Part shown: positions 1 to 60,826 of the stretch, one piece after another
How positions within the stretch are numbered: position 1 is the first letter of the stretch
Layout: every line of letters begins with the position of its first letter
IMG/VR virus record: IMGVR_UViG_3300037475_000079
Span: 1-64,000 of that record
Strand: one strand, 5' to 3'
Source of the DNA: a virus
DNA length: 64,000 bases
The notes under the pieces: generated by a model
The model's database searches: none
What the model saw: only the letters and a program-made list of their open reading frames with translations
What the model was told of the DNA's origin: nothing
Translations under genes and position numbers: made by a program

Positions 1-2
1 GG

Positions 3-248
3 GCCAACAATTGCCGCACATTCGAGGGGCCGGGAGTCGGCTGCTACCTGCTTTCGGATTGCGACGGCGCATTTTCGTGCAATGTCTATTCATCGTCGGA
101 CGATGCCATCGAGAAGATAAATCGCTCCCTTGTGTCGTGGGATGATGGCGGCAGGATCTTCGCAGAGTCATCACAAAAGTCGATTCTGGAACACCACTGT
201 TTTGAACACCGTGTGCCACATTTTTTGTCAGTTGTTGAATCACTATGA
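3..248 (+). CDS. hypothetical protein, 3' fragment (gene continues left of the window)
   Basis: Frame 3 is open from the window edge (ANNCRTFEGPGVGCYLLSDCDG...VVESL*). Its TGA overlaps the next ATG (ATGA), the same coupling seen along this operon. Confidence 0.35.
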   Translation, partial: ANNCRTFEGPGVGCYLLSDCDGAFSCNVYSSSDDAIEKINRSLVSWDDGGRIFAESSQKSILEHHCFEHRVPHFLSVVESL

Positions 249-994
249 ACATTGCAGTCCCAAATCCGGTATGCGGTCCGTCGCTCTCAAAGGCCATTTC
301 CAGATTCAACGATAAGTGGATAGAGTCCACAGATCGTGAATTTGGCGGAACTCGATGCTGGGAATGGTCCGCGCAGATAATTCACGGATACGGTTCTTTT
401 TATTTCGATTCAAAGAACAATCGCGCGCATCGCATAAGCTACATGATGTTCGTCGGAAAAATACCGGACGGTCTTCTGGTGTGCCACAAATGCAACAACA
501 AGTGTTGCGTAAATCCATCGCACTTATACATTGGTACGCCAAAGCAAAATTCTCAGGATGCAGTGCGCGACGGACTTTCTCCTGTTGGATCAAGACAGCC
601 AAATTCAAAGCTGACTGAATCGCTGATTGACGAGATTCGGAGCCTTTGGTCGGCCGGAAATATAACTCAAGTTGCATTGGCATCGCAGTTTGGAGTCGAT
701 CAAACTCTGGTCAGCTTGATCGTGATGAATAAGGCGTGGAAACACTGCGCACCGGCTTCTCAGCCACCAATAAGAATTCCGCCGGGTCGTCCAAAGATAA
801 ATTTTGAAATCGCATCGCAAATCAGGAAATTGTATGCCGGCGGTGCTTCCCTCAAAGATATTTCCATGACGCACGGAATAAGCCTTGAGAACGCAGGCCA
901 TGTCGTGAGAAACGAGCAATGGCACGATCCATCATGGGCTTACAAGAGGCGGTACAACAAAAGCAAACGTGTAGTTCTGGAGAGCCTGCGATGA
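245..994 (+). CDS. HNH homing endonuclease with C-terminal HTH-like segments
   Basis: 249-aa ORF. 'HGYGSF..NRAHRISY..VCHKCNNKCCVNPSHLYIGT' matches the HNH_3-type core. Confidence 0.75.
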   Translation: MNIAVPNPVCGPSLSKAISRFNDKWIESTDREFGGTRCWEWSAQIIHGYGSFYFDSKNNRAHRISYMMFVGKIPDGLLVCHKCNNKCCVNPSHLYIGTPKQNSQDAVRDGLSPVGSRQPNSKLTESLIDEIRSLWSAGNITQVALASQFGVDQTLVSLIVMNKAWKHCAPASQPPIRIPPGRPKINFEIASQIRKLYAGGASLKDISMTHGISLENAGHVVRNEQWHDPSWAYKRRYNKSKRVVLESLR

Positions 995-1209
995 TCCCAG
1001 AACGAGAATGCTGCGGACAGCCGATGGAACCTCTAATGTTGATGCTTGAACACAAGCAGCCGTCAGAGGACGGCAGTCTAGGAATCGCATCGGCATGCCT
1101 TCGGTGCAAGGTGAACAGCGAACACAGATTTAACGAATTGTCGCAAGAGGAAATCAATGAGATCGTACAACTGCCAATGGTTCCGGTGGAATTTGCGAGA
1201 GATCCATGA
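991..1209 (+). CDS. hypothetical small Cys-containing protein
   Basis: ATG at 991 overlaps the upstream stop (ATGA) and the ORF end overlaps the next ATG. Sequence is MIPERECCGQP...CLRCK. Confidence 0.4.
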   Translation: MIPERECCGQPMEPLMLMLEHKQPSEDGSLGIASACLRCKVNSEHRFNELSQEEINEIVQLPMVPVEFARDP

Positions 1210-1925
1210 ACGACGTTGCCGTTCTTATTCCGAGTTGTGACCAATTTTCTGATGTGCATCCAGTCGCCTTGGCCTGCCTCAGAAAGTATTGGCCGGACTG
1301 CCCGTGGCCAATCTACACGCAATCGAACAGGCTGCCGTGGGGCAAGAGTCCGATACTCTGCGGAGACGATAAAGGCTGGATTCAGAACACGCTGACGACA
1401 CTCGACTTCATGCCGGAACTCGAATTCGTGTGCCACTTCCTGGACGATATGCTTCTCTGCCGTGACGTCTACACAGACGAACTGCTTGAATATCTGAAGA
1501 TCATGCGTGCCTTCAAGGAGATCGGCGCCTTCCGGGTCGGCCAGACTGGAGGCGACAAGCCGATTGATCCATCTCAGGACTGTGAGCCATTCAAGGCGCT
1601 GCGCATCGACCCGGCATCGCAGTATTACGTCTCGACTGGTCCAACGATCTGGCGCGTAGCGTTTCTGCGGAAGGTGCTGGAGCACGTCAACGGTTCGACG
1701 GCATGGGATTTCGAGATCGGAGGGACGGCGTATGCGCGAACGTGCGAGGAAGAAATCTGGATGCCGACGGGGCCGGAACACGAGCGGCCATTTCGGACAT
1801 TTTATACGGCGATCACGAGAGGACGGTGGAACCGAGGCTGCCTGAATTGGCTGAAGGAAATCGGAATTGAAGAACCAGATTTGTCGCGTAGTGTTATCGA
1901 GGACAATGATCGGAGGCCGATGTGA
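1206..1925 (+). CDS. putative glycosyltransferase-like protein
   Basis: 239-aa ORF with 'VAVLIPSCDQFSDV..YWPDCPWPIY' and an 'FLDDM' acidic motif, resembling polysaccharide-cluster GT-like proteins. Family not identified. Confidence 0.35.
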   Translation: MNDVAVLIPSCDQFSDVHPVALACLRKYWPDCPWPIYTQSNRLPWGKSPILCGDDKGWIQNTLTTLDFMPELEFVCHFLDDMLLCRDVYTDELLEYLKIMRAFKEIGAFRVGQTGGDKPIDPSQDCEPFKALRIDPASQYYVSTGPTIWRVAFLRKVLEHVNGSTAWDFEIGGTAYARTCEEEIWMPTGPEHERPFRTFYTAITRGRWNRGCLNWLKEIGIEEPDLSRSVIEDNDRRPM

Positions 1926-2140
1926 GCGAACCGATTACCGTATGGCCGATCGGTGCCGAAGTGGAAATTGCTACTGACATCGTTGGCAAGATTATCGGCA
2001 TTTGGATCTGCGGAGGACGCAGAATTCCATACAACGTCGCATGGTGGAATGGTCGAGTTCGTGAAGAAAAGTGGCTCGAAGAGTTCGAAGTAAAAAACAC
2101 GAAGCGAACAGCAACAAAAGAAGTAGGATTTCATCAATGA
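1922..2140 (+). CDS. hypothetical small protein (GTG start)
   Basis: 72-aa ORF coupled at both ends by GTGA and ATGA overlaps. Confidence 0.35.
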   Translation: MSEPITVWPIGAEVEIATDIVGKIIGIWICGGRRIPYNVAWWNGRVREEKWLEEFEVKNTKRTATKEVGFHQ

Positions 2141-3327
2141 TCGTCCCTCTCGGCCACGTCGAAGTCACCCCGCGCCAGATCGAACTGGTGACGGAAGCCT
2201 TGCGCAACAACCGCATCTCACGCGGACCGTTTACCGACAAATTCGAGTCCCTGATCGGAGAGATTCATGGCGTCTCGCATTCCGTGTTCATGGCTTCCGG
2301 GACTTGTGCCTTACTTGTCGCTCTCGAAGCCGCAAAAGAACTCCAAGGCTGGCCAGACGGCGCTGAAGTCATCGTCCCCGCCACCACGTTTATCGCCACG
2401 GTCGCGGCGGTCAGGCAGGCAGGATTAACGCCGGTTCTGTGCGACGTGCGGGCGGATGATGCCAATATCGACGTTTCCAAGATCGGCGGCTCAATCACCC
2501 CGAGAACCGTCGCCATCCTGCCAGTTCACCTGCTCGGCCGGGCCTGCGATATGACAAACCTGATGATGTTGGCTGACGATTTCGGGCTGGAAGTCATCGA
2601 GGACTGCTGCGAGGCCATCGGGGTATCGCATTGTGGGCGTCCTGTAGGCTCCTGGGGGCTTGCTGGCGTGATTTCGACATATGTGTGCCATCACGTCTCT
2701 ACGGGCGTCGGAGGCTCGATTCTGACGAATTCTGACGCTTTGGCGACGATCTGCCGCTCATTGATGGTCCACGGTCGAAATCCGGTCTATCTGAGGCTGG
2801 AGGATGACGACGATCTGGACGATTCGAGCATGAAGATCATGATGAACGCCCGGTACAACTTTTGCCGCTGGGGGCATTCGTTTCGGGCGTCGGAGATGGA
2901 AGCGGCGCTGGGGGTTGGCGAGATGGAGGAATGTCCGGTAGACGAGTCCCGCAAGAAGCGGAATGCTATCGCTGGAGCGTTGTCGCTGATCTTCCAGAAA
3001 TGGCCAGATCGAATTGCCTTGCAAGAATGGCCTCATGGATCATCGCCGCTGTTCGCTCCGATCATGTGCGACACTCCCGAAACGTGCCGCGGATTGTCAC
3101 GCCACTTCGAGAAGAATCAAATCGAGACGCGCCCGGTGATGAGCCTTTGTCAGCCGATCATTGTCAAGATGCTGGCGGAACAAGACAAGTCGTTCGATGA
3201 CTTCCCGATAGCCTGTCAGTGGCGTGATAGAGGGTTTTTGGTGGGCTGTCACCCGGCGATTTCGATGGATCAAATCCGCCACATTGAGTCCGTTACTGCA
3301 GCCTATTTCTCTGGAGAATCGTCGTGA
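2137..3327 (+). CDS. DegT/DnrJ/EryC1-family PLP/PMP sugar enzyme, ColD/RfbH-like (putative 3-dehydratase rather than aminotransferase)
   Basis: Fold-type I sugar-aminotransferase layout ('FMASGTCALL', 'VIEDCCEAIG', 'ETRPV', 'GFLVGCHP'). The Schiff-base Lys position reads 'TYVCHHVSTGVGG' (His-His), as in ColD 'FYSHHIATMEGG' recalled from memory. Confidence 0.7.
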   Translation: MIVPLGHVEVTPRQIELVTEALRNNRISRGPFTDKFESLIGEIHGVSHSVFMASGTCALLVALEAAKELQGWPDGAEVIVPATTFIATVAAVRQAGLTPVLCDVRADDANIDVSKIGGSITPRTVAILPVHLLGRACDMTNLMMLADDFGLEVIEDCCEAIGVSHCGRPVGSWGLAGVISTYVCHHVSTGVGGSILTNSDALATICRSLMVHGRNPVYLRLEDDDDLDDSSMKIMMNARYNFCRWGHSFRASEMEAALGVGEMEECPVDESRKKRNAIAGALSLIFQKWPDRIALQEWPHGSSPLFAPIMCDTPETCRGLSRHFEKNQIETRPVMSLCQPIIVKMLAEQDKSFDDFPIACQWRDRGFLVGCHPAISMDQIRHIESVTAAYFSGESS

Positions 3328-3560
3328 GTCAGTATGGCGAGCCGTGGCGTTCCGTCATTGGGCCGCGCTCAAGCAACGTGATGATCTTCTCGAATCAGGA
3401 ATTGCCTGGAATGTTCGTCGCCATGACAGGCACCGGGCCTAATGACACACAGAGAAAGAAGATTGATCGACTCGTCGCATGCGTCAATGCGTGTTCCGGG
3501 TTGTCGGATGAAACGCTTGCCGCAGCGAATAAAGGCAACGTTGTGTTGAAGCCAGTTTAA
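3324..3560 (+). CDS. hypothetical protein
   Basis: 78-aa ORF coupled to the upstream gene. Contains a 'RLVACVNACSGL' motif common in small phage proteins. Confidence 0.4.
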   Translation: MSQYGEPWRSVIGPRSSNVMIFSNQELPGMFVAMTGTGPNDTQRKKIDRLVACVNACSGLSDETLAAANKGNVVLKPV

Positions 3561-3582
3561 CCACCACTTTTCAGGAGCCACC

Positions 3583-4104
3583 ATGCCTCCCCCGAATCAT
3601 CCGCAAAAACAACCTGCTCAGACGCCGCCTGTTGTGCAGTCCCCTCCGGTTCAACCGACAAGCCCGCAGGTTCAACAGCCAACGGAACCAGTCGCGCCGC
3701 GCCCGCATGCATTCAAGCAGACACTAGAAGCCGGGATGCTGACAATCAGTGCCGATTCGATTCTCAAGTTCAAGCTCTGTTGGGCACAGGCAGGAGCGTC
3801 CATCGAGGCTCTCGTGCGTCACATCCGGGACAAGTGCGTCGTCGAAGGAAAGGCTCTCTATCAAGCGGCGATCGACCACGGATTCAAGGATGTCATTCTG
3901 TTGGACAAGTCAGCCAGGATCGCCTCTGACGGCCACGTCGAGCCCGAGAAGCCGGATCTGCCGCGAGAACTGTTTCACGACACATCGGCGAATCCGCTGG
4001 GCATCTACGGCCGCAACGTCCTGCACTTGTCGATGACGGATGAATTCGCGGCGGCAGAGCGCAGGAAGGCGGCGGCGAAAGACGTGCGATACGGACGTGT
4101 TTAG
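3583..4104 (+). CDS. hypothetical protein with Pro/Gln-rich N-terminus
   Basis: 173-aa ORF preceded by AGGAG. Confidence 0.45.
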   Translation: MPPPNHPQKQPAQTPPVVQSPPVQPTSPQVQQPTEPVAPRPHAFKQTLEAGMLTISADSILKFKLCWAQAGASIEALVRHIRDKCVVEGKALYQAAIDHGFKDVILLDKSARIASDGHVEPEKPDLPRELFHDTSANPLGIYGRNVLHLSMTDEFAAAERRKAAAKDVRYGRV

Positions 4105-4139
4105 GAATGGATTGTGGTTTTACTTCAGGAGACTTTGAA

Positions 4140-4346
4140 ATGACGGGGACGATCAAGAAACTCATGCCCGAAGAAAAGGGCTTCGGATTCATTCGCAAGC
4201 AGGATGGAACCGATACTTTCTTCCACTGCCGATCTCTAATCGGCTGCGAATTCGGCCAGCTCCGCGAGGGACTGTCTGTTGAATTCGATGAGGAGCCCGG
4301 CAAGGAAGGGAAGCTACGAGCAAAGAACGTGAAGGTGGTTGCGTGA
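4140..4346 (+). CDS. cold-shock domain protein (CspA family)
   Basis: 'GTIKKLMPEKGFGFI..DTFFH' and 'EGLSVEFD' match the CSD RNP1/RNP2 pattern. GGAG lies 8 nt upstream of the ATG at 4140. Confidence 0.8.
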   Translation: MTGTIKKLMPEEKGFGFIRKQDGTDTFFHCRSLIGCEFGQLREGLSVEFDEEPGKEGKLRAKNVKVVA

Positions 4347-5257
4347 GCGTGCATTTCCTGTGTCACTTCCACGCTCCGTCCATGCCGCATGCGCAGGCGA
4401 TGATCCAATCCCTGCGCCAGTTCGACGATTCACCGATTACGTGCGTCTGCGATCCAGACTGCTACCACGCCTTCGCCGAATCGCCGTTCGTCGAGCGGAT
4501 GGGGAACATCTTCCCGGTTCCGATCCATGTCGTCGAAGCGGAGTGCCGGAGCGAACTGCCGTTCTACCTGGAGAGGCCAAGGAAGTCGCCACGAGATTTC
4601 GCCTGGGCCATGCAGGCTTGCCTTCCGTGGTGGATCATGGAACGCTGCAATGAGGACTGGCTGATCTACATCGACTCGGATTGCTATGCCTTCCAGTCGT
4701 TCCAGCCGATCATCGACCCTCTACCAGATACTGCGCATGTCGGGATTTGTCCACACCATTTCCCTCCCGGTAAAGAGAACGAATCGGCAGGTCGCTATAA
4801 CAACGGAATCGTTATATGGCGTAAGTCTCCGCTCTCGATCGAGCATGCTCTGCGCTGGGGCCGCGAGACGCTAGAACGCTGGCAGCCGGGGCATCCGCGC
4901 TCGATTCCACATGAGCAGAAATTGCTCGATGAATGGTCGGAACAATTGGGACAGGCGTGCGTCGAACTTCCACGCGGTTGCGATGTTGGCCCTTGGCAGT
5001 TCTGGTCAAAGGAAGGCGCTGGCCAAGTGATAGCGTGTGACGGAATGGTTCGTGAGTCACTGAAGACCGATTATGGCGGGAAAGGTCAGGATTGGAATAT
5101 TCAGTCGTATCACTTTCACGAGTTCCGTCGCGGCCCCGGCAAGAATCCCGTTACAATCAAAGGCCAGCAGTGGAATCGTTCGGGCTACCCGCTGCATCCC
5201 GAGACTATTGAGTCGGTTTATCTGCCATACGAACGACAGCTTGCGGAGTTTCTGTAA
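4343..5257 (+). CDS. putative nucleotide-sugar glycosyltransferase (DxD)
   Basis: 304-aa ORF with a GTGA overlap to csp. 'LIYIDSDCYAF' is a DxD-type motif. Confidence 0.45.
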   Translation: MSVHFLCHFHAPSMPHAQAMIQSLRQFDDSPITCVCDPDCYHAFAESPFVERMGNIFPVPIHVVEAECRSELPFYLERPRKSPRDFAWAMQACLPWWIMERCNEDWLIYIDSDCYAFQSFQPIIDPLPDTAHVGICPHHFPPGKENESAGRYNNGIVIWRKSPLSIEHALRWGRETLERWQPGHPRSIPHEQKLLDEWSEQLGQACVELPRGCDVGPWQFWSKEGAGQVIACDGMVRESLKTDYGGKGQDWNIQSYHFHEFRRGPGKNPVTIKGQQWNRSGYPLHPETIESVYLPYERQLAEFL

Positions 5258-5916
5258 TGCCTGACATTCCAGCCGAAGACTGGTCCGCCCCCTGGATAGC
5301 ATCTGATACGTGCTGCAAGCATCAGGCAGAGCAAGCCGAGATCGACCTGCGCGACTGGCTGGCCGGGAAACCGCATGAGGCGTTCGATGCGTTGAAGGCG
5401 GTGCTATCGCCAATCTCGCCGACTGACGACATGACGTTCCTGGAAATCGGTTCAGGCTGCGGATACAACGCCGCTGTATTCCTGATGACTGGACAGAGGC
5501 AGATTTACCACGGACTCGACATCAGTCTGGCGATGGTCGAATATGCCAATAAGCAATTCGGACATATCGGCAAGTTCTCTGTCGGTTCTGCGGAGTCTCT
5601 GCCATTTTCTGATGGCTCGATGGACTGCACATGCCTCGCGGCTGTCATTCAGCACATGCCAGACTACCGGCCAGCGATCCGGGAAGCGATTCGCGTGTCA
5701 AACAGATCAGTTATTCTGCATCGCGTGCAGGCCACGCGCGGAGAGACGAACGAGTTCGTGAATGAGGCATATTCCACTAAATTGCCGACACGCGAACTAA
5801 ACGAGGACGAATTGCTTTCGTTCTGCGAATCGGCAGGGCTGAAGCTGGTTCACGCGCATCGGTGGGGAGATGTGTCGAAGGCATTCAACGCTTCGTTCTT
5901 GTTCGAGAAATCGTGA
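5257..5916 (+). CDS. class I SAM-dependent methyltransferase
   Basis: 'FLEIGSGCGYN' (motif I) and 'GLDIS..MVEYA', a typical Methyltransf_11-like order. Confidence 0.75.
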   Translation: MPDIPAEDWSAPWIASDTCCKHQAEQAEIDLRDWLAGKPHEAFDALKAVLSPISPTDDMTFLEIGSGCGYNAAVFLMTGQRQIYHGLDISLAMVEYANKQFGHIGKFSVGSAESLPFSDGSMDCTCLAAVIQHMPDYRPAIREAIRVSNRSVILHRVQATRGETNEFVNEAYSTKLPTRELNEDELLSFCESAGLKLVHAHRWGDVSKAFNASFLFEKS

Positions 5917-6113
5917 TGGCTGCCGGTGTCCGCGGTACTTCTGGAGGAGTAATAATGGGAATGAATGGACCGCCTCCGAGCGACAGACCGCGATATCCGA
6001 TCGCCACTCCGCCCATGCCACCAATCATCCGGCAGCCTATCAACTGCCGTGGCTGCGGCGCGAATCATGCAGCCAGCCAATGCCCCTATTGCGGAAGAGG
6101 ACGCGGAGGATGA
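5916..6113 (+). CDS. small Pro-rich protein with C-terminal CxxC..CxxC zinc-ribbon-like motif
   Basis: The internal ATG at 5916 overlaps the upstream TGA. Ends 'INCRGCGANHAASQCPYCGRGRGG', and its TGA overlaps the next ATG. Confidence 0.4.
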   Translation: MAAGVRGTSGGVIMGMNGPPPSDRPRYPIATPPMPPIIRQPINCRGCGANHAASQCPYCGRGRGG

Positions 6114-6742
6114 GTATTCGGATTTCAAGTGCCGTCACAACCTCCCCGCGAGCCAATGGCGTTGATTATCTTCCCGCTACTATGGAATCGTTAAGTAACT
6201 CCGGATTCGATCCCCTGATCGTGCAGGACGACGACTACCGCGGATCTTGGCCGATGCTGCGAGAGGCGTTGAGATTGCTGCTGGAACGTGGGGCTCACGA
6301 CGCTCTGATCGTGTTTCAGGACGACATCGTTGTCGCCAAGGGACTGTTCGCATGGCTCGAAGAAACACTATGGCCGGCGGATCCAGAGACGATCGGTTGC
6401 GTGTCGCTTTACACCGCAGGCGCGAACAGCCGTGAAGAAAACGGCTGGTACACGTCGGATGATTTGCCGAATTTCAAGCCGTGGGGCGCGTGTGGTTTGT
6501 GCTTCCCGAGACGATCGGCCGAACTGCTGCTGGCGAACCCGCCGAACAAGGCACTGATGAGTTGCTCTGACGCTTCCGTGGCGACTTTTTGTAGAATGAA
6601 CGAACTGAATTTCTGGATGCACAGTCCTTCGCTGGTCCAGCATATCGGCGAGACGAGTTCGCTGGGAATCGGGAACACGCGAGGCATCACCGAAGATCGC
6701 TGTGCCAGTCGGTTTTGCGTTGACGCGAGGGAACTGCAATGA
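6110..6742 (+). CDS. putative GT-A-type glycosyltransferase
   Basis: Starts at MSIRISSAVTTSPR. Has an 'IVFQDDIVV' DxD-like motif and a C-terminal 'HSPSLVQHIGETSSLG' typical of GT-A enzymes. The 5870 start in the ORF track is an out-of-context extension. Confidence 0.5.
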   Translation: MSIRISSAVTTSPRANGVDYLPATMESLSNSGFDPLIVQDDDYRGSWPMLREALRLLLERGAHDALIVFQDDIVVAKGLFAWLEETLWPADPETIGCVSLYTAGANSREENGWYTSDDLPNFKPWGACGLCFPRRSAELLLANPPNKALMSCSDASVATFCRMNELNFWMHSPSLVQHIGETSSLGIGNTRGITEDRCASRFCVDARELQ

Positions 6743-7425
6743 CATTCAAAGGCGCGGATGGAAAACTGTCGTTCGGTGGCCAGTCGTTCAATGTGACAGA
6801 ATGGTCCGCCGACATCATCGCCCCGCCAGTGTTCTACTTCGAAGGCAAGCCGTTCGAGATGAACGCGGCAGGGATTTATGTGCCGGCGTGTTCGTGCGAA
6901 CCATTTTCTCAGCCGATCGACTGGAGCAACGCGACAACCACGGTATCTTCATCTGATGCACCGAAAATCACGATGGCTTCTGTATTGTCTTCAGTAGAGA
7001 AAATGAAAGCAGCAGCCGAGAAGCACATCACCACAAGCCTGTTCGACAACTCTGGACTATGGAAGCCTCTGGTCGATTCGTCGATTGGAAATAATCACCA
7101 GAAGATGCTTGATACCGGAAAGCTGTTCGATTCATACAAAACTGTTCCAATTCCAGACGGCAATCCGATCAGTATCCATACGATGTTCGAGCATGTATTT
7201 ATTCCACCGCCAATCCATGTAACATTCGCTGGACTGATCGCCAGCATGTTATCGGCGAGAATCCGTCGCTTCATCATCGAGCACGACGACTCGCACCTGT
7301 TCACGCGAGAGCCGACAATGCGCCCGTGGCAGCAATCCGATGAACAGCACATTCTGAGAGCCATCCACGGCGGAGGCGATTGGGTATGGTCTGAGACGCT
7401 GAAGGCGCACGTCAGGGTTGTTTAG
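6739..7425 (+). CDS. hypothetical protein
   Basis: 228-aa ORF and last gene of the + operon. Its stop overlaps the stop of the convergent gene. Confidence 0.5.
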   Translation: MTFKGADGKLSFGGQSFNVTEWSADIIAPPVFYFEGKPFEMNAAGIYVPACSCEPFSQPIDWSNATTTVSSSDAPKITMASVLSSVEKMKAAAEKHITTSLFDNSGLWKPLVDSSIGNNHQKMLDTGKLFDSYKTVPIPDGNPISIHTMFEHVFIPPPIHVTFAGLIASMLSARIRRFIIEHDDSHLFTREPTMRPWQQSDEQHILRAIHGGGDWVWSETLKAHVRVV

Positions 7426-8492
7426 CGGCCTGCTGATTGGCCTGCCTTAGCAAGTCGAAATAGATCATCAGCCAGACCGTCAGATCCCGCTGCCCCCGTC
7501 GAATTGACAAATGCATCGGTCAAATCGGCTTCGTAGGTCTGCACTAATCCCGTAGCCGGCGTGACTGACAGAATCAGCGTGTCGCCACTCGCATTTGGTG
7601 CGGCTGGGTCAACTCCCGACGTCGCGTCCTGGATTGTGCGAACAGCGAACATTAGCACTCCGAGCGCACTTGGAACGCCAGTAATGTTTCCGCGTGGCGA
7701 GAACATCAGATCGACGTTGACCGGCGAGACCGGAGGCGGCACCGAGTAGCTGGCGAGTGTCTTAACCGCCTGATTTGAGTAGGCGATGTCGATGACGCAG
7801 CCAGATGGCATCGGTATCGGCTGGTGAAAAGCGAGTACTTCGTTGCCTACCAGAATGCCGATTGACGAATCGGTGTCCGTCGCCAGCTTGTTGACGAACG
7901 ATTTGGCCGGCGAGATTTGATTTCCGCCGTTGTCGAAGGCTGCGGCAAGCGTAAGAATTACATTCCCCGCATTGTCTTTCTGGCAATAGTACGGAGGCAC
8001 GTTAGAGACCTGCTGCAAAGGATACCACTGTCCAGTCAGTGCGGGAATCTGTGCCTTGACGAGTCCCGGTTGCCAGAGCGAAATAGATGATGAATCCTGC
8101 GCGAGCCATGCCGCCGATTCGGGACTGCCTACGACGATCTGAATTGAAGGATTCGGAAGCGGATTGATAACAGTCATGACGTTGCTCTCCTGTCCATTGG
8201 CGGAGTTTCCCGCAACCTGCATCGGCATCGGCTGCAAGTACACGAAACCGTTAATCAAGTTCGGATTCGTCGCGTCCCGTGTCAGCCGGACACCGCGATA
8301 GTCCTTAGCGTGCAGTGCTCGATCTTTGGCCCCCAGGAATGCGGACTGCCCGATTCGTACCGACGAACGGACACGCTCGCTCGACTTGCCACTATTGAAC
8401 ACGGCCATCGCCGCTCCTATTAGCAGCAGCATGATCGTGATGACCACGAGCAATTCGACAATGGTAAATCCAGATCGGCGGTTAGCTTTCAT
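7422..8492 (-). CDS. prepilin-type N-terminal cleavage/methylation domain protein (pseudopilin-like)
   Basis: N-terminus 'MKANRRSGFTIVELLVVITIMLLLIGAAMAVF' is the class III signal / pilin hydrophobic helix. Confidence 0.7.
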   Translation of the reverse strand: MKANRRSGFTIVELLVVITIMLLLIGAAMAVFNSGKSSERVRSSVRIGQSAFLGAKDRALHAKDYRGVRLTRDATNPNLINGFVYLQPMPMQVAGNSANGQESNVMTVINPLPNPSIQIVVGSPESAAWLAQDSSSISLWQPGLVKAQIPALTGQWYPLQQVSNVPPYYCQKDNAGNVILTLAAAFDNGGNQISPAKSFVNKLATDTDSSIGILVGNEVLAFHQPIPMPSGCVIDIAYSNQAVKTLASYSVPPPVSPVNVDLMFSPRGNITGVPSALGVLMFAVRTIQDATSGVDPAAPNASGDTLILSVTPATGLVQTYEADLTDAFVNSTGAAGSDGLADDLFRLAKAGQSAGR

Positions 8493-8682
8493 TCTTGCAT
8501 CCCCCTACATTGAGTCGGTACGTTTCCCAAGCCTGCATCGTGAACGCGATGCCGGCCATTCCCCAGAACATCAGATCGAGCTGTATCAACTGCCAGAGAC
8601 GCCCGTCAATCATCCTCTCGAATAGCGGCGTGCTGTCGAATGGCAAGTAGATCGAAAAAAGGTGATCCTGAATAGGAGGCAT
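8482..8682 (-). CDS. hypothetical small hydrophobic protein
   Basis: Start taken at MPPIQDH (AGGTG upstream). Overlaps the pilin-like start by 11 nt. Confidence 0.3.
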   Translation of the reverse strand: MPPIQDHLFSIYLPFDSTPLFERMIDGRLWQLIQLDLMFWGMAGIAFTMQAWETYRLNVGGCKNES

Positions 8683-8701
8683 TTGGCACCTGAAATGATT
8701 T

Positions 8702-8740
8702 GACCTCGCCAGCACCGGGTTCAGCGGTGCGGGCGAGGTC
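8702..8740 (-). other. nested stem-loop in an intergenic region
   Basis: GACCTCGCC..GGCGAGGTC (9 bp) encloses GCACCG-ggttcag-CGGTGC. No T-run follows. Confidence 0.3.
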
Positions 8741-8829
8741 GTGACAGCGGAAAAGCTGCTTCGTGATACCCGGCTGAACCACGGGCCTCTGTGTCTGTAA
8801 CGTATTGTGGACGTGAATGGATCACGCCG

Positions 8830-9114
8830 TCAAGTAAATTTACCCCACCGCTTCGTTCCGTGCGGGCATTCCATGACGGCCATTTCGGCTTTCGCCTGCA
8901 AGTTACAGCCGCAAATCAGGCACTTTCCGCCACGACAGAGGGGGCATTCGGAGCAAATCCGCAGTCTCTCGCGGTAGACTTCCTCTGGCACGTTTCGGCA
9001 GCCCGAAGCGACATATCGCGCGACTGCCTCGATATAGTTCAGGCCAGAACGCCACCACGGCGGCAGTTCGGTGGGGTCGCTATTCGTAGACTCGTCCGGT
9101 TTCTCGATCGACAT
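8830..9114 (-). CDS. Cys-rich zinc-binding-like protein
   Basis: Cysteine cluster 'CSECPLCRGGKCLICGCNLQAKAEMAVMECPH'. Start taken at MSIEKPDE. Confidence 0.45.
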   Translation of the reverse strand: MSIEKPDESTNSDPTELPPWWRSGLNYIEAVARYVASGCRNVPEEVYRERLRICSECPLCRGGKCLICGCNLQAKAEMAVMECPHGTKRWGKFT

Positions 9115-10282
9115 GCTTGATCCTGGCGGACGTGCCAACAAACAATTTCCATCCGGCCTCGCGGGCCTGCTGGCTGAAGAATGAGTCTTGCGTCAGGCTG
9201 CCTGTTGTCACGAACCAAGGCTGCGGGATCTCGCGGAATGCCTGGACGGGAATGAGCGTGAAGCCTTGAGGGATGCTGTAGACTTCATGCACGTCGCCAT
9301 CGTCTTTGAGGTAGCCGCGTGTAGTTTTTGACATGATTGCGCCGCAGGCGGATTTGTCAGTCAATGAAAATAGTCGATCATCGCTGAGAACAATCGGCGC
9401 ACCAGTGCGCGGCTCCTTGCGCTGTGGATACCACGCCCCAACAATCGAGCGTGGTCCCTCTTTCTGATGAACTGCCCAGACCTTTTCAAACGTCCCCTGC
9501 GGAATTATGTGATCATCTTCGACGCAAAGCAGGTAATCGGCCTCATCCTCAATCGCCTTTCGCGCGGCCTCATTGTACGCATCGGCGACCGGCTTGCCGT
9601 CGATAACCAAAAACTTCTGCTCGAATACACCTGGCACACCCCAGCCATCAAGGCAACGGAGCCCATCGCGTTTGATTGTCTCTTTGTCGATGAGTGTTGG
9701 TGTGACAATCAGAATTCGTAGTCTGCCGCCTTCGAGGAATCGCTGTTCGGCTGCTTTGATGTGTCCCTGTCCGGTGGGTTGACCGATCATTCGCAAAGCG
9801 TCCTGATTGCCGACACCGACGCGACCGTTCGCGTTCATGTCGTGTTGAGCCTGCATGGCTAGTCGGAGTTGCCAGTATTCCGATTCGGCCGCTTCCAATT
9901 CTTCGCGTGTAAAAGTCCTGTCGAATGATTTGTAAATTCCCCAGAGGCACTGAGCCTCGCGGACGGCCCCGAGCATGGCGAGCGAATGGTCCTCAAGGTC
10001 GATGCGTTCGAGTTCGGCCTTATCGAGTGCTGCGGGAGTTCCGATCTTTTCGAGGCGCTCGATCTTTCGTCGGCTCTGTCGCTGGTGAATCTCTGCCCGC
10101 CTGATGTTCTGCAATTTGATTTGCAGTTCGAGAACGCATTGCCACCATCTTCGCGGCTCCGAAACGTGCTGACCGACAACGAAATGTTTGATCTGGAAAT
10201 CGGTTCGTGGTTGCTGAATCGCTTTGATCGACTCGTCAAGTTCCGCGCGCCAGTTGTCGAATGGAATAAGATCGTCGCTCAT
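9080..10282 (-). CDS. two-domain protein: helical N-terminal region plus GT2-like glycosyltransferase
   Basis: Start at MSDDLIPF. C-terminal half has 'LRILIVTPT', 'YLLCVEDDH' (DxD) and 'PWFVTTGSLTQDSFFSQQAREAGWKLFV..IKHVD', typical of GT-A/GT2. Confidence 0.6.
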   Translation of the reverse strand: MSDDLIPFDNWRAELDESIKAIQQPRTDFQIKHFVVGQHVSEPRRWWQCVLELQIKLQNIRRAEIHQRQSRRKIERLEKIGTPAALDKAELERIDLEDHSLAMLGAVREAQCLWGIYKSFDRTFTREELEAAESEYWQLRLAMQAQHDMNANGRVGVGNQDALRMIGQPTGQGHIKAAEQRFLEGGRLRILIVTPTLIDKETIKRDGLRCLDGWGVPGVFEQKFLVIDGKPVADAYNEAARKAIEDEADYLLCVEDDHIIPQGTFEKVWAVHQKEGPRSIVGAWYPQRKEPRTGAPIVLSDDRLFSLTDKSACGAIMSKTTRGYLKDDGDVHEVYSIPQGFTLIPVQAFREIPQPWFVTTGSLTQDSFFSQQAREAGWKLFVGTSARIKHVDRETGRVYE

Positions 10283-11214
10283 AGTCCCGCCGTTGTGGCT
10301 CCTGTAACGCGAGTTCGCGCCTGCGAAAGCGTGCCGGATGAAGAAAAGGTTTCCGTAGAAAAGTTGAATCCGCCGATGACGTTTCCCCAGTTCCCGCCTG
10401 CCGCCAGCAGAGTGACGCCATCGGAACCAGACGCGCCATCGGAACCTTTCACCGCCGCCTCTTGCCATGCCGTTGCCGTCGCGGACGTGGTGTCGGTCGA
10501 GAAAACAATCTTGTCTGTTGTGCTGACCGGTGCGCCTGTCTGCCCACCGCCCCAGAATCCCTTGGTCGATCCATCACCACCAGCAAACACGCCAAACCGA
10601 GCCGTCGAAATATCGGCCGATGCGACGTGTGATGTGCTGTCGCTGGCGAATGTAATCTTGTCGGTTTGTTTCGTTCCGGTGATTGCCCCAGCCGATACGC
10701 CACCTCCCCAATAGCCTTTTGTCGATCCTTCAGACATCCCCGCCACATTCGCGCGAGCGAGCGAGAGATTCGCGCCACCTGCGGCCGACGTTGTGTCTGT
10801 GGAAAATACAATCATGTCTGCCGTAACTTGTTTGACGCCCGCGCCGCCAGTTAGACCGCCCGCGAAATATCCCTTCGTGGTTCGCTCGCTGATTCCGGCT
10901 AACTGTGCCCGTGCTTGCGACAGTGCGGACGATCCCGATACCGAAGTCGTGTCGGTTGCAAAGACTAGCTTGTTTCCTGTTGATTGATCACTTGCGGTCG
11001 TGTCGGTTCTTCCGCCGCAGTAATAGGCGGCAACAGATGGATTGGCACACGCACCCATCATCTCTGTGGTAGTCGGGACGTTGGCGGATGTAACTGCCGA
11101 CGAGACAAGAGACGTGCAATCGGTCTTGTCAGCCGTGGCGACGACGGTGGTGCCGCCCGTTAGTCCACCAAGCGAATACATCTGCGCGGCAGAGGATTGG
11201 CAACAGCAAATCAT
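10279..11214 (-). CDS. repeat protein with about six ~50-aa degenerate repeats (propeller-like), probable tail-tip component
   Basis: Recurring unit 'KGY(F/W)(A/G)GG....T(D/A)KI(V/T)F(S/A)TDTTS......LS.AR'. Confidence 0.55.
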   Translation of the reverse strand: MICCCQSSAAQMYSLGGLTGGTTVVATADKTDCTSLVSSAVTSANVPTTTEMMGACANPSVAAYYCGGRTDTTASDQSTGNKLVFATDTTSVSGSSALSQARAQLAGISERTTKGYFAGGLTGGAGVKQVTADMIVFSTDTTSAAGGANLSLARANVAGMSEGSTKGYWGGGVSAGAITGTKQTDKITFASDSTSHVASADISTARFGVFAGGDGSTKGFWGGGQTGAPVSTTDKIVFSTDTTSATATAWQEAAVKGSDGASGSDGVTLLAAGGNWGNVIGGFNFSTETFSSSGTLSQARTRVTGATTAGL

Positions 11215-16485: not shown

Positions 16486-17022
16486 CTAACCTCCAAACAG
16501 ATGTAGACTGAAACTGGCACTCCCAGACGGAGACGCCGCGTCGTTTTGAATACGCAAGACCTTTGTTCCACCGTTGACCGTGATGCCTGCGTACGGACTT
16601 GAGATAACGAAATCGCCACCGGCCGGCACAAGGTTCACTCCGCTTCCCGATCCGTTCCACGGGCCTACCCAGCCATTCGACGGGCCCGGCTTGACGATCA
16701 ACCCGGAGCCTCCCGTGGTGTCGTTGTTGTGCAGAATCATCCGATAGATTTTGCTGAAATTGGTCAAGTTTCCGAAGGCGTCCACGAGCAGCGTCAAGTC
16801 GATATCGTAAATGCTTGATGCGATCGTGATCGAGTGTTTGCCTTCGTAGTATTTCGTCGGAATCGTCAGGGTGTTATTGGCATCGCTCTGCTGCGCTGCG
16901 TACGACATCTGATACGTGGATTGCAGGCCGGCGGACTGGATCGTGTTGAATCCAATCGCGTCGGCGTTCTGGTAGGAGAACTGATCCCCGATGCGGCTGA
17001 CGAGTGCGAGTGTGACGCTCAT
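16486..17022 (-). CDS. hypothetical structural protein
   Basis: 178-aa ORF between the tail terminator-like and major tail genes, with a 4-nt overlap upstream. Confidence 0.45.
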   Translation of the reverse strand: MSVTLALVSRIGDQFSYQNADAIGFNTIQSAGLQSTYQMSYAAQQSDANNTLTIPTKYYEGKHSITIASSIYDIDLTLLVDAFGNLTNFSKIYRMILHNNDTTGGSGLIVKPGPSNGWVGPWNGSGSGVNLVPAGGDFVISSPYAGITVNGGTKVLRIQNDAASPSGSASFSLHLFGG

Positions 17023-17477
17023 GCTGGCCTCAATCCGGCCAATCGGCCATATTCAATGCTGAACGTCATGGTCCCCTGGTTCACCGTGTCTCCAACGTCC
17101 TCAATGACGTACGGCGACATCAGTTGGCACGAGAGGACTGAATCCTGCCCCGGACCAACTCCTGCCATCGTCAACGGATTGGATGCCGCCTGATTGGCAT
17201 TCAGAAACGCCTGTTCGACCAGCTCGCACAACTGACCGCACTGCACATCCTGCAAGGCGATGACTTGAAATTGCACAAGCGACGTCTGATAGCGGCTGTT
17301 CGAGCTTCTCATCGAAGTCGAGTCAGACACGTCCGTCCAGATGCAGTAAGGAACGTCATTGGCCAGATTCAGAATGACGGCCTCGGGAACGCTCCCGTGC
17401 CACACACCTCCGGGAATACTGGTCGTGAGATTCTTCGCGTTCCAGCGGTTCAGGATGGCTTCATCGAGATACAGCAT
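17019..17477 (-). CDS. putative tail terminator / tail completion protein
   Basis: Start at MLYLDEAILNRW overlaps the upstream stop. Size and position fit gpU/DUF3168-like proteins. Confidence 0.45.
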   Translation of the reverse strand: MLYLDEAILNRWNAKNLTTSIPGGVWHGSVPEAVILNLANDVPYCIWTDVSDSTSMRSSNSRYQTSLVQFQVIALQDVQCGQLCELVEQAFLNANQAASNPLTMAGVGPGQDSVLSCQLMSPYVIEDVGDTVNQGTMTFSIEYGRLAGLRPA

Positions 17478-18091
17478 TACGGCGTACTCCCAGCGGACGC
17501 ATCGGGAGCCGAGAAGATAGCCTGAATCTCCGCTTGCGATTCCATCAATGCCGGACGCAACCACGGATGCGGCGGAATATGCGAATGCGTTACCAGAATG
17601 AAGTGAATCGCCGTGTACCGCTTGACTCGCGCCTTTGTTCCGCCGATGTCCTCGACAAGCAGAATTGCACCTGTCTTAGCCGACACGATCGGAGACAGTT
17701 TCCTCGGGAAGTTGCGAACTGAAGCGCCTGGAGCCATCATGAACCGTTGAGCTTCAGCGCTCACCGGGATCGTCAGCCGTGACCCGCTCTTTGGCGTAAT
17801 GCTGGGAACGCCCTGTTCCTGCCATCGACCGACCTTTAGAGGAGTCCCAATTTCCGCTGTGTTCTCATCCTTGAATTGCCAGAAAACAGACTGGGAAAGC
17901 TGTCCGCTGATGCCGACATGGGGAGGTTCTCCAATACCGCTGATATTTCGCACGTCTCCAATCGAACCGCGGCGCCCACGCTTCAGTTTGCGAGTCGCGT
18001 TATTGCGCACCACGTTCGCAGCCTTGCCAAGTTTGATCCTGGCATTGCGCATCACCTGCGACTCAAATGCTGTATTGACTTTGACGCCCAT
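17477..18091 (-). CDS. HK97 gp10-family head-tail joining protein
   Basis: The C-terminal 'IPPHPWLRPAL' resembles the gp10-family 'RPFLRPA' signature. Position is in the neck module. Confidence 0.55.
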   Translation of the reverse strand: MGVKVNTAFESQVMRNARIKLGKAANVVRNNATRKLKRGRRGSIGDVRNISGIGEPPHVGISGQLSQSVFWQFKDENTAEIGTPLKVGRWQEQGVPSITPKSGSRLTIPVSAEAQRFMMAPGASVRNFPRKLSPIVSAKTGAILLVEDIGGTKARVKRYTAIHFILVTHSHIPPHPWLRPALMESQAEIQAIFSAPDASAGSTP

Positions 18092-18423
18092 TACGACACG
18101 TACATCCCTCTGCGAACCTTTAGTCCATGTAATTCAAGCTGTTCTGTCAGTGCGGCCATATCTTCGTTCGCTACTTCATCTCCCGGCTGCATTCCGCTGT
18201 TTACCTTTACTGGAGAGAGTCCGCAGCAAATCAGTAACTGATGTAAGTCGCCTTCCGACGTCATGTATCCCGCACGCAGCCAGTATTTTGTGATGGCGCA
18301 GTTGATTTCTTCCTCTTCGATTTGCACACGCACAAGGTTTTCGGCCATGCCGTCGGTGCCGAGTTCCTTGAGTTCGTCGATGAAATCGGCGATCGACTGA
18401 AACATGACGCTTTGGTCTGGCAT
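18091..18423 (-). CDS. hypothetical neck-module protein
   Basis: ATG at 18423 overlaps the upstream TAA (TAATG). 110 aa. Confidence 0.4.
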   Translation of the reverse strand: MPDQSVMFQSIADFIDELKELGTDGMAENLVRVQIEEEEINCAITKYWLRAGYMTSEGDLHQLLICCGLSPVKVNSGMQPGDEVANEDMAALTEQLELHGLKVRRGMYVS

Positions 18424-18779
18424 TACTGCTGCAATTTTCTGGAAGTGAGGAATAGGCCCAGCATGTAAAACAAGCCCACATGATCCGGGTTCTTCTGAAC
18501 ATGCACGAAGTAGATTTCCGATCCGATGACAAGTTGATCCCGGTTGTCGCACTGTGGGTCTGTGACCGTGTACCAAACCGCATCGAACTCCATGTCTGCG
18601 CCGCCCCACCGAATTGATCGCTGTCCACCGCTCTGATTCATGCGTCCTGTTGTGGTTGTCGGCAGTGCTCCACGATTTCCCGTTGTATAACTCCGCACCT
18701 CGCCGCCGGCTGCCGATTGAGTCGAGACGACACGCTTGATAGTCGCTGTCGATGTCGAGCAGAGTGATGCAAGTGACAC
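18423..18779 (-). CDS. head-tail adaptor / head closure protein
   Basis: 118 aa. 'IKRVVSTQSAAGGEV..W..VWYTVTD..RDQLVIGSEIYFV' fits the phage head-tail joining pattern. Confidence 0.55.
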   Translation of the reverse strand: MSLASLCSTSTATIKRVVSTQSAAGGEVRSYTTGNRGALPTTTTGRMNQSGGQRSIRWGGADMEFDAVWYTVTDPQCDNRDQLVIGSEIYFVHVQKNPDHVGLFYMLGLFLTSRKLQQ

Positions 18780-19606
18780 TACCGTTTGCTCCTTTGGTGT
18801 TCACGGAGCAACTGTTCTGCCTTGAATGGCAACGGCCTCATCATGCCTGTCATTTGTGCGACACTTTCCTTGTCGTAGGTGAAGGCCGCATCCCCAATCT
18901 TTTCGCTGACGATCGGTCCCTGCGCCCCGAGTCCATTCGCGCCTGTCGCCTTGGCTTCGTTGAAAGCCGCAGCCGCCGTCAAAATCGCCGCATATTTGAT
19001 TGCCAGCGGAGCACCGGGCCGATATGCAAGTTTCGTCTTACCGTCAAGCTCGTCCGGCGTCAGTCCAGCCGTATACTGCAACTGCATCGTTCTCTGGCGT
19101 CCCGCAAACGTCCCGATCCACGCGCGCATGTGTCCGGTCCACGAAACGCCCGATCTGTAAGGGATGGTTTGTCCGGGATCTGGCGCGTCATAGTCTGCGT
19201 ACCATTGTGACCCCTGAAGAATGTCCGTGGCCGCTGCGAAGTCAGTTGCTCCCTGCCCGCCGAGTGCCGCATAATCCATCGCAAAGACGCTCACCGAACG
19301 CACCGGGATTTCTGGCAATTGGAGAATCACAGGAGGTCCGGGGAATGCGTATGCAATCCGGTTGTTGATAACGTCCATCGGGAGCCCGACGTCGTTCTGA
19401 TTGACGACGAACATATCCAAGTCGGGAAGCATGTGCGTGTACGTGTCTTGCACGACGCTATAGCCGAGGAACGACTTGATCGCCCCATCAGTCAACGGCA
19501 TGAGCATCGTAATGAGGCCCAGGTCGGCCTCTGCCGTAGCTGCACCAGCCTTTCCCAGATAGGCCAGCACTTCGGCCGGATTGCAAATTGTGGTGCGTAC
19601 GCTCAC
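18779..19606 (-). CDS. putative head-tail connector (gp6-like N-terminus) with extension
   Basis: GTG start overlaps the upstream TGA (GTGA). The N-terminus 'CNPAEVLAYLGK..AEADLGLITMLMPLTDGAIKSFLGY' resembles gp6-like connectors. Confidence 0.4.
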   Translation of the reverse strand: MSVRTTICNPAEVLAYLGKAGAATAEADLGLITMLMPLTDGAIKSFLGYSVVQDTYTHMLPDLDMFVVNQNDVGLPMDVINNRIAYAFPGPPVILQLPEIPVRSVSVFAMDYAALGGQGATDFAAATDILQGSQWYADYDAPDPGQTIPYRSGVSWTGHMRAWIGTFAGRQRTMQLQYTAGLTPDELDGKTKLAYRPGAPLAIKYAAILTAAAAFNEAKATGANGLGAQGPIVSEKIGDAAFTYDKESVAQMTGMMRPLPFKAEQLLREHQRSKR

Positions 19607-19974: not shown

Positions 19975-20123
19975 TACTTGGTTGCGAATCCCTTCCCATC
20001 AGTACAACCCGGACACGGTTCCTTGAACTTCTTTCCGCCCCGGTTCACGAGGATATACTTACGCCCCTTGCAGTGCCGGCACGTTCGATTCTTCATGTCT
20101 TTGGTCGATGATGGCTTGTGCAT
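19974..20123 (-). CDS. small DnaJ-type zinc-finger protein (below the ORF-track size cut-off)
   Basis: MHKPSSTKDMKNRTCRHCKGRKYILVNRGGKKFKEPCPGCTDGKGFATK* carries two CxxCxGxG-like motifs. It overlaps the glycosyltransferase 3' end in another frame. An alternative start is at 20096. Confidence 0.45.
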   Translation of the reverse strand: MHKPSSTKDMKNRTCRHCKGRKYILVNRGGKKFKEPCPGCTDGKGFATK

Positions 20124-21045: not shown

Positions 21046-21046
21046 G

Positions 21047-59829: not shown

Positions 59830-59842
59830 GCTCGCAATCCTT

Positions 59843-60802: not shown

Positions 60803-60826
60803 GATGAATCCTCAAGTGATTGGCCT

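Follow-up and report, generated by a model that had tools for sequence, protein, structure and literature searches.

Why would a phage make a 3,6-dideoxyhexose, and what would it attach the sugar to? The question is raised by a plus-strand operon at positions 245–7425 of the first 64,000 nucleotides of IMG/VR virus record IMGVR_UViG_3300037475_000079 (this whole 64,000-nucleotide stretch is called the window below). Phage-made glycans have three known destinations, the host surface, phage DNA, and the virion; the original prediction for this locus offered precedents for surface conversion and virion glycosylation but left out phage DNA. We conclude that the operon is very probably the downstream half of a larger, co-inherited phage glycan-assembly cluster. 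Our best explanation of the whole, to which we assign a probability of roughly 0.4, is that the cluster makes a methylated oligosaccharide containing a colitose-type sugar and that this glycan is placed on the phage's own virion proteins.

Three of the ORFs (open reading frames) of the operon, here called GTa, GTb, and GTc (Table 1), had been proposed to be glycosyltransferases, and confident models (GTa and GTc) and profile bridging (GTb) bear out a glycosyltransferase fold for each. None of the three gives anything above threshold in Pfam, NCBIfam, or Protein Data Bank (PDB) sequence searches, and their relatives among 5.8 billion proteins number 10 for GTa, 8 for GTb, and 15 for GTc, none of them with a Pfam domain. 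Nearly all members of the families come from phage-like metagenome contigs. All three proteins carry a conserved acidic DxD-type motif after the fourth strand, and they are not paralogues of one another (no paralogues were found within the window, and an hhalign comparison of GTa with GTc gives a probability of 1.3%).

The AlphaFold2 model of GTa has a predicted local distance difference test score (pLDDT) of 90.3 and a predicted template modelling score of 0.89. Its best solved structures in Foldseek are POMGnT1, B4GALNT1, SpsA, and GnT-I (~6e-6, probability 1.0), and the leading named matches in a viral structure library are all GT2 or GT25; no PHROG match was obtained. GTa has a conserved DD (DxD-like) motif, FLDDML, and D81 is invariant in its alignment (A1). 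The model of GTc (pLDDT 89.8) matches GnT-I (4.5e-8), POMGnT1, Mimivirus R655, a GT25 beta-1,4-galactosyltransferase, and COLGALT1, and a PHROG glucosyltransferase profile matches its sequence at 3e-4. The likeness of GTc to GT13 enzymes (GnT-I/POMGnT1) is structural, with a template modelling score of ~0.6 and 14–15% identity, and with zero Pfam, NCBIfam, and PDB sequence matches GTc cannot be placed in CAZy family GT13 by sequence. GTc has an FQDD motif and a C-terminal histidine within PSLVQHIG, and Q70, D71, D72, and H178 are invariant. Each of the two models shows one Rossmann-like alpha/beta/alpha domain of the GT-A type, with Foldseek probability 1.0 to transferases. Taken together, the models confirm GTa and GTc as predicted GT-A-fold glycosyltransferases.

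GTb was reached by another route. On its own it matches GT2 in Pfam at E=0.074, below threshold, and it also falls below the gathering threshold for Pfam Glyco_transf_8 and Nucleotid_trans; four of its eight close homologues match Nucleotid_trans weakly (best 0.014). Searched as a profile, the eight homologues bring in 2123 proteins at E<=1e-3. Among 65 distant matches of this profile (1e-16 to 1e-25), 20 have a Pfam Glyco_transf_8 domain and 15 a Nucleotid_trans domain, and hhalign relates the GTb alignment (A2) to these distant matches with a probability of 100% (3.6e-43). GTb has a DxD motif (IDSDC), an HEQ motif, and a C-terminal histidine, with D111, D113, Q192, and H257 among its invariant residues, and alignment A5 likewise shows no variation in the DxD, Q, and His columns. 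By transitive homology, GTb is thus a predicted GT8/Nucleotid_trans-like, retaining-type GT-A glycosyltransferase. There is a lesson for annotation here, as all three transferases were missed by Pfam, PHROGs, and NCBIfam and were recovered by structure prediction and profile bridging alone.

The sugar that these enzymes may transfer is suggested by the DegT-family protein of the operon. The Pfam family DegT/DnrJ/EryC1/StrS (PF01041) covers it from residue 13 to 383, its full length, at 1.9e-73 (248 bits against a cutoff of 19.8), and its nearest PDB sequences are 3-dehydratases (9wvy, 1e-38; E1, 2e-38; ColD, 3e-26). His185, in the segment STYVCHH, aligns with His220 of E1, the residue that is lysine in the H220K mutant structure 3bb8, and with the catalytic lysine of the aminotransferases 7b0m and perosamine synthase; it is kept in the orthologues of two other phages described below. 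Because histidine stands in place of the Schiff-base lysine, the protein is a predicted sugar 3-dehydratase of the ColD/E1 type, dependent on pyridoxamine 5'-phosphate, and the label "ColD-like" given to it earlier is right in mechanism. An aminotransferase role was considered and rejected, as histidine replaces the catalytic lysine. E1-type chemistry was rejected as well, as the iron–sulfur cysteines are missing: the [2Fe-2S] ligand motif of E1, which we take to be C-X57-C-X1-C-X7-C, is absent, and the segment aligned to E1 RDCYCAPGCDNTC reads GRNPVYLRLEDDDDL, without cysteine.

The operon is a single chain of 13 ORFs, one fewer than first counted, and the earlier description of it as overlap-coupled holds, with overlaps of 1 or 4 nt at 10 of the 12 junctions. 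Eight junctions have 4-nt ATGA or GTGA overlaps (994/991, 1209/1206, 1925/1922, 2140/2137, 3327/3324, 4346/4343, 6113/6110, and 6742/6739), and two have 1-nt overlaps (TAATG at 5257 and TGATG at 5916); the other two junctions are short gaps, one of 22 nt that has a GGAG-like site (3560/3583) and one of 2 nt (4104/4107). Start/stop overlaps are common in phages generally. The packing of this operon is denser than the phage's own background, since outside the operon the window shows such overlaps at about 11 of its 48 same-strand junctions (a background taken from a crude ORF set), and the coupling suggests co-translation. No promoter-like site was found on the plus strand of window 1–9200, and terminator-like sites turn up there no more often than in shuffled sequence. 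The N-termini of homologues back the starts taken for GTb (GTG, 4343) and GTc (ATG, 6110); gene callers run on identical contigs picked later starts for GTb, GTc, and the cold-shock gene and left 5916–6113 uncalled.

"Dedicated to sugar chemistry," as the operon had been described, is too strong a phrase, as a sugar-related function is predicted for only 5 of the operon's 13 ORFs: the three transferases, the 3-dehydratase, and a generic class I S-adenosylmethionine (SAM)-dependent methyltransferase, which we infer to be a sugar O- or N-methyltransferase. This methyltransferase and the cold-shock protein were correctly named before, with Pfam matches of 4e-15 and 1.6e-14. Of the two "zinc ribbons" that had been called (991–1209 and 5916–6113), the CxxC...CxxC spacing is real, but that spacing is the sole basis for the name. 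The HNH, cold-shock, and small Cys-rich genes appear to be passengers or regulators rather than sugar enzymes, and the HNH gene is probably a lineage-specific insertion outside the sugar chemistry; its slot in a sister phage is occupied by a Methyltransf_24 gene.

The operon is also cut by the start of the window. Although the 245–7425 chain stands, it continues for ~6.5 kb upstream, as seen in a public contig of 93,390 bp (Logan SRR12917118_116423) that is 100% identical to window 1–8694 and runs on upstream (locus L002); the full cluster is therefore larger than 245–7425. The order in L002 is integrase, pectate-lyase-fold gene, GT2-like gene, a 440-residue double methyltransferase, a GT47/exostosin-like gene, small ORFs, a 213-residue ORF, and a Glyco_trans_1_2 gene, followed by the HNH gene, and most of the junctions are again 4-nt overlaps. 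A minus-strand ribbon–helix–helix protein and a small lipoprotein-like ORF also lie within this upstream part. No family was detected for the 213-residue ORF, whose slot corresponds roughly to that of a Methyltransf_21 gene in the sister phage. In total, the cluster encodes some six transferases and one 3-dehydratase, and it has three or more methyltransferase genes.

Two further glycosyltransferases had been reported within the virion modules. One of them (20059–21084) is above the Pfam cutoff and sits between the major head gene and the head-tail adaptor gene (18779–19642), whereas the other (9080–10468) has a weak GT2 match only (Pfam 9e-4, below cutoff) next to an N-terminal part that matches PHROG 1409 at 1.3e-14. 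PDB sequence searches with both proteins were uninformative, and no relatives of the head-module protein were found in IMG/VR. The phage as a whole thus encodes about eight transferases, counting these two transferase-like proteins of the structural operon, one of them weak. The tail-fibre-end slot that holds 9080–10468 is variable. In the sister phage (L018:13616–14750), a prolyl-4-hydroxylase-like 2-oxoglutarate-Fe(II) oxygenase and a small methyltransferase take the place of 9080–10468 and its neighbour 10279–11214, and the adjoining tail genes are 72–78% identical; the distal tail slot would be a swappable cassette of modifying enzymes.

Is the cluster one pathway? The sister phage, a 101-kb contig represented by loci L001 and L018, has the enzyme cluster at 46–76% identity. 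A distant IMG/VR contig, L007, of which 20 kb was examined, keeps the enzyme core at 30–43% identity: GTc twice, the GT2-like protein, the double methyltransferase, GT47, GT-B, GTa, the DegT protein, the methyltransferase, and GTb. For the HNH, cold-shock, Cys-rich, and small ORFs, the search of this part of L007 gave no homologue, and none of the window ORFs outside the cluster match it either. The alternative that these genes are a mosaic of independent accessory genes forming no single pathway, with GTc working with a pilin-like protein or a tail-fibre cassette, draws on a different set of observations. In three phages, no more than a few genes separate a pilin-like gene from a GTc homologue (window 7422–8492, L018:12577–13497, and L019:8670–9707, the last 26% identical to the window copy), and the third of these contigs, L019, lacks GTa, GTb, the DegT gene, and the rest of the cluster in the 20 kb seen. 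Moreover, the three GT-A proteins are not paralogues, and the HNH and other genes have been gained or lost between lineages. A mosaic accounts poorly for the joint retention of the full enzyme set by three lineages whose identity falls as low as 30%, for an overlap coupling suggestive of co-translation, and for the finding that, in the 20 kb of L007 examined, the window matches are cluster genes only. We consider it improbable.

The L007 contig also bears on the identity of the sugar. Gmd (GDP-mannose 4,6-dehydratase, 1.5e-116) directly follows GTb there, a GDP-fucose-synthase homologue (6e-59 to Fcl structures; GDP, guanosine diphosphate) lies one gene beyond, and the DegT orthologue is two genes upstream of the Gmd and Fcl/ColC-like genes. 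The presence of Gmd and an Fcl/ColC homologue near a ColD-type dehydratase indicates a colitose-type (GDP-colitose) pathway, and together with an FdtA-like cupin, a SPASM-domain protein, and the dehydratase these genes appear to give L007 a self-contained deoxy-sugar supply. Compared with the GDP-L-colitose route (Gmd, then ColD, then ColC), the window phage resembles it in the histidine at the lysine position and in lacking the E1 iron–sulfur motif, and its L007 orthologue stands two genes from Gmd and the ColC/Fcl homologue. It differs in having the ColD-like step only in the ~83 of ~93 kb inspected, so the host would have to supply the first and last steps.

We propose that a methylated oligosaccharide with a deoxy sugar would be made in the host cytoplasm. 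The dehydratase would take a host-made nucleoside diphosphate (NDP)-4-keto-6-deoxyhexose, most likely GDP-4-keto-6-deoxymannose, and its output would lead to a colitose-type 3,6-dideoxy sugar. The transferases could then add about six sugars in turn, with the methyltransferases capping hydroxyl groups, and the acceptor would be virion proteins of the phage itself, which would receive the glycan in the cytoplasm, either ahead of assembly or in the course of it. This choice of acceptor is tentative. We favour it because the enzymes appear soluble, export genes are lacking, and the late structural operon encodes two transferases. Membrane segments are absent from every cluster enzyme (no 19-residue hydrophobic window above 1.62), and no flippase, polymerase, initiating phosphoglycosyltransferase, ligase, or GT-C protein was found in the cluster or the flanks examined. 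The virion is also favoured by the near-confinement of the transferase families to phage-like metagenome contigs, by precedents in mycobacteriophages and giant viruses, and by the tail slot of the sister phage, whose oxygenase and methyltransferase are of types that commonly modify proteins.

Several points weigh against this proposal. To begin with, the glycan, its acceptor, and the enzyme activities are all predictions from genes. Sugar nucleotidyltransferases also match the GTa fold, at ~4e-5, about 10-fold more weakly than the transferases do; the FLDDML motif and an N-terminal IPSCD strand would suit a transferase better. The closest solved relatives of the predicted 3-dehydratase are of the glucose series (E1 and 9wvy), with ColD farther away. 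As these are its nearest relatives and L007 encodes an FdtA-like cupin, of a family presumably made up of dTDP-sugar isomerases, the nucleotide carrier of the sugar may be other than GDP. Neither the 4,6-dehydratase (Gmd) nor the final reductase was found in the ~83 of ~93 kb of the window-phage genome inspected. The GTc–pilin neighbourhood complicates the picture of a single pathway. The cluster has an integrase on one side and the distal tail genes on the other, with the pectate-lyase-fold (tailspike-like) gene as a neighbour, and surface-conversion genes of phages such as P22 and Sf6 occupy this same position. Finally, 3,6-dideoxyhexoses are known mainly from O-antigens, and soluble transferases are able to act on lipid-linked intermediates at the inner membrane face; the prophage enzyme TarP, an example of a soluble transferase, is among the fold matches of GTa.

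The last of these points lead to lysogenic conversion, in which a cluster expressed from the prophage would remodel an envelope glycan of the host (lipopolysaccharide (LPS) O-antigen, capsule, or surface glycoprotein). More specifically, a methylated dideoxyhexose side chain built on lipid-linked precursors could alter the phage receptor and block superinfection. The window phage is temperate, as two tyrosine integrases show, the cluster has the classic conversion position, and colitose-type sugars are typical O-antigen determinants. In cyanophages, LPS-type gene sets that include DegT 3-dehydratase-like genes have been read as host-surface modifiers (PMC12801897). The absence of membrane-spanning enzymes and of any flippase, polymerase, ligase, initiating phosphoglycosyltransferase, or GT-C protein speaks against conversion, as does the number of transferases: six would build a whole new unit, which Wzx/Wzy-type machinery of the host would have to accept. 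The transferase families are, moreover, nearly absent from bacterial genomes (the only such relatives found, both of GTc, are a single Pirellulales contig from a metagenome-assembled genome (MAG), which came from a trimmed-alignment scan of a genome collection, and an Isosphaeraceae MAG fragment), and the late structural operon contains two more transferase genes. We judge lysogenic conversion, the receptor-altering form of it included, to be somewhat less likely than virion glycosylation but a serious rival to it, and we agree with the original prediction that the sequence leaves the choice of acceptor unsettled.

The serotype-converting cassettes of known phages (gtrABC of P22 and SfV, oac of Sf6, and TarP) are like the present cluster in belonging to temperate phages and in lying between tail or tailspike genes and the integrase. 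They consist of one to three genes, with a GtrA flippase, a membrane-anchored GtrB, and a GT-C-type Gtr, in contrast to the more than 10 soluble enzymes encoded here. A gtr-type conversion cassette was accordingly rejected as a description of this locus, as the cluster has no membrane component and no gtr Pfam families.

Phage DNA is the third possible destination. Phage glycosyltransferases akin to LPS and teichoic-acid enzymes put mono- to trisaccharides on 5-hydroxymethylcytosine, and clusters for such DNA glycans can adjoin structural genes (bioRxiv 10.1101/2023.12.21.572611). If the present cluster built oligosaccharides on a modified base of this kind, the phage might evade restriction, and the HNH nuclease and the nucleic-acid-binding cold-shock protein of the operon would fit such a role. 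DNA-glycan clusters need a cytosine C5-methyltransferase and a TET-like 5mYOX (bioRxiv 10.1101/2023.12.21.572611, Pyle et al.). Among the 50 window ORFs and in the Pfam tables of the flanks, neither of these is found, nor is a dCMP hydroxymethylase, and an N6/N4 DNA methyltransferase is the only DNA methyltransferase seen. T-even phages use dCMP hydroxymethylase in place of the C5-methyltransferase/5mYOX pair. The HNH and cold-shock genes lie outside the conserved core, and we know of no DNA glycan with a 3-dehydratase or a Gmd/Fcl-type deoxy-sugar supply, which also counts against this explanation. DNA hypermodification is in our view highly improbable.

Returning to the virion as acceptor, the nearest precedents are in mycobacteriophages and giant viruses. 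In mycobacteriophages Che8, Corndog, and Myrna, phage glycosyltransferases act on capsid and tail-tube proteins within the cytoplasm, according to the account of Freeman 2023 given in PMC12363180. The likeness lies in several soluble transferases in one tailed phage, and Che8 is temperate, as the window phage is. The window cluster differs in being larger (about six transferases and two more in the structural operon) and in having a 3-dehydratase; its host is apparently of a Gram-negative type (Planctomycetota), and its glycan is a prediction. To our knowledge, mycobacteriophages are so far the only phages with experimental proof of virion glycosylation (see also PMC12363180).

PBCV-1 encodes its own capsid glycan machinery, including an exostosin-like GT-B protein (PMC11571054; review, PMC9614988). 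The window cluster shares with the giant-virus clusters (PBCV-1 A064R/A075L, Mimivirus R655/R699) a combination of GT-A transferases, exostosin-like GT-B transferase, SAM methyltransferases, and deoxy-sugar enzymes. The GTc model matches Mimivirus R655, both the GTa and the GTc models match R699, and the Gmd and fucose-synthase homologue of L007 recall the pair that PBCV-1 presumably carries. The differences are that this is a bacterial virus of ~93 kb and that the likeness is at the level of fold, with 8–16% identity. In its fullest form, our proposal is that a ~93-kb temperate phage, probably of Planctomycetota, uses giant-virus-style machinery with about eight transferases, a colitose-type 3-dehydratase, and several methyltransferases to put a methylated, 3,6-dideoxyhexose-containing oligosaccharide on its own capsid or tail proteins, and this we regard as doubtful.

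Phages with many transferases are already known. Cyanomyoviruses such as S-SCSM2R, with 13 glycosyltransferases, and P-SSM2 (PMC12801897) likewise combine many transferases with nucleotide-sugar enzymes, and a lineage of large aquatic phages has four glycosyltransferases as core genes (PMC12619734). Of 50,697 phage records, 77 have DegT 3-dehydratase-like genes, and 54 of these are Synechococcus phages. Cyanomyoviruses differ from the window phage in being lytic and ~200 kb or more; their DegT proteins are <30% identical to that of the window, and GTb has zero tblastn matches in the 50,697 records. Given these systems, the kind of system is not new; what is new is a well-conserved, unusually complete member with very divergent enzymes, from an unexplored phage group. 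If the virion is the acceptor, virion glycosylation would extend beyond actinobacteriophages, and an "O-antigen sugar" would be carried by a virus particle. The cluster is compact and conserved, and its transferases, too divergent for standard family models, are candidates for new CAZy-level families. It is also good ground on which to test the spread of virion glycosylation in environmental phages.

Table 1. Genes of the glycan cluster, of the phage genome, and of the distant contig L007. Plain coordinates refer to the window; L002 and L007 are separate loci.
Feature	Position	Strand	Evidence or remark
Cluster continuation	L002:1-8795	+	directly upstream of window position 1; identical contig
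Tyrosine integrase	L002:1-384	+	second of two separate integrase genes; precedes the pectate-lyase-fold gene
HNH endonuclease, C-terminal helix-turn-helix (HTH)-like region	245-994	+	Pfam HNH_3 3.9e-12; no L007 match
Small Cys-rich (CxxC...CxxC) protein	991-1209	+	ATGA overlaps both sides; 82% identical in L001; no family match
GTa, orphan GT-A-fold glycosyltransferase (predicted), FLDDML	1206-1925	+	predicted structure
Small ORF, 72 residues	1922-2140	+	GTGA/ATGA overlaps; called on identical contigs; no family match
DegT-family NDP-4-keto-6-deoxyhexose 3-dehydratase (predicted)	2137-3327	+	Pfam DegT; His185 kept in L001 and L007
Small ORF, 78 residues	3324-3560	+	55% identical in L001; no family match
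173-residue protein, Pro/Gln/Thr/Ser-rich N-terminus	3583-4104	+	45% identical in L001
Cold-shock domain protein	4107-4346	+	Pfam CSD 1.6e-14; in L001, not L007
GTb, GT8/Nucleotid_trans-like GT-A glycosyltransferase (predicted)	4343-5257	+	profile bridging
Class I SAM-dependent methyltransferase	5257-5916	+	Pfam Methyltransf_11 4.3e-15; beside GTb in L001 and L007
Possible small Cys-rich ORF (CxxC...CxxC), reality uncertain	5916-6113	+	TGATG/ATGA junctions; no L001 homologue detected
GTc, GnT-I/POMGnT1-like GT-A-fold glycosyltransferase (predicted)	6110-6742	+	predicted structure
228-residue protein, last gene of chain	6739-7425	+	56% identical in L001; no family match
Two-domain protein, C-terminal part weakly GT2-like (RILIVTPT ... 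CVEDDH)	9080-10468	-	distal end of tail module
GT-B-type glycosyltransferase-like	20059-21084	-	Pfam Glyco_trans_1_2 1.3e-8, 35.4 bits against cutoff 25
Major head (capsid) protein	21976-23589	-	PHROG profile
Prohead protease region	23634-25895	-	PHROG profile
Portal	34408-36759	-	PHROG profile 2e-61
Large terminase	37419-39182	-	PHROG profile
Tyrosine integrase	43427-44341	+	one of two in ~93-kb genome
FdtA-like cupin	L007:3301-3744		deoxy-sugar supply
SPASM-domain protein	L007:8643-9410		deoxy-sugar supply
Gmd	L007:13416-14369		deoxy-sugar supply
GDP-fucose-synthase/ColC-like reductase	L007:14701-15672		deoxy-sugar supply

The phage origin of the window, assumed from the start, is upheld by the portal, large terminase, capsid, and protease matches, and the head-tail adaptor, neck, and tail-terminator genes span 17019–19642. 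The identical Logan contig stops at window 8694, and its coordinates imply that it resumes at the other end, with ends overlapping by ~29 nt. Because of this implied wrap-around, the contig may be a circular permutation of the window-phage genome, or the genome may be circular, at ~93.4 kb. A blastn search of window 1–8 kb against the 50,697 phage genomes gave zero matches. The host is tentatively placed in Planctomycetota, on the basis of the GTc relatives in the two MAGs and of the pilin-like gene 7422–8492, on the minus strand, whose prepilin-type product we take to be typical of that phylum. In this product a single hydrophobic helix lies at the N-terminus, where Pfam N_methyl (1.9e-6) marks a prepilin methylation motif, and the stop codon of the convergent gene overlaps that of 6739–7425. 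Within the operon, 3583–4104 has a paralogue upstream (L002:7547–8083, phmmer 1.7e-6); the N-terminal 40 residues of its product are mucin-like in look, and a role as acceptor or linker is pure speculation.

Elsewhere in the window, an ORF of 772 residues (59684–62002, plus strand) is almost certainly spurious, as it runs antisense to several minus-strand genes that gene callers place on the identical contig, and a product of this kind is nowhere on record. A PDB sequence search with the product of 61927–62826 was uninformative. A Cro/CI-type HTH protein is also encoded (Pfam HTH_3 1e-17). Two transposase-like genes lie inside the phage genome (29000–30061, plus strand, and 59843–60802, minus strand); one matches the IS1-type InsA zinc-ribbon and DDE_Tnp_IS1, and the other the IS1595-type zinc-ribbon and DDE. 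Outside the cluster, a SAM methyltransferase-domain protein of 380 residues (52228–53370, minus strand) shares 37% identity with one part of a thioredoxin-methyltransferase fusion from the phage contig L019.

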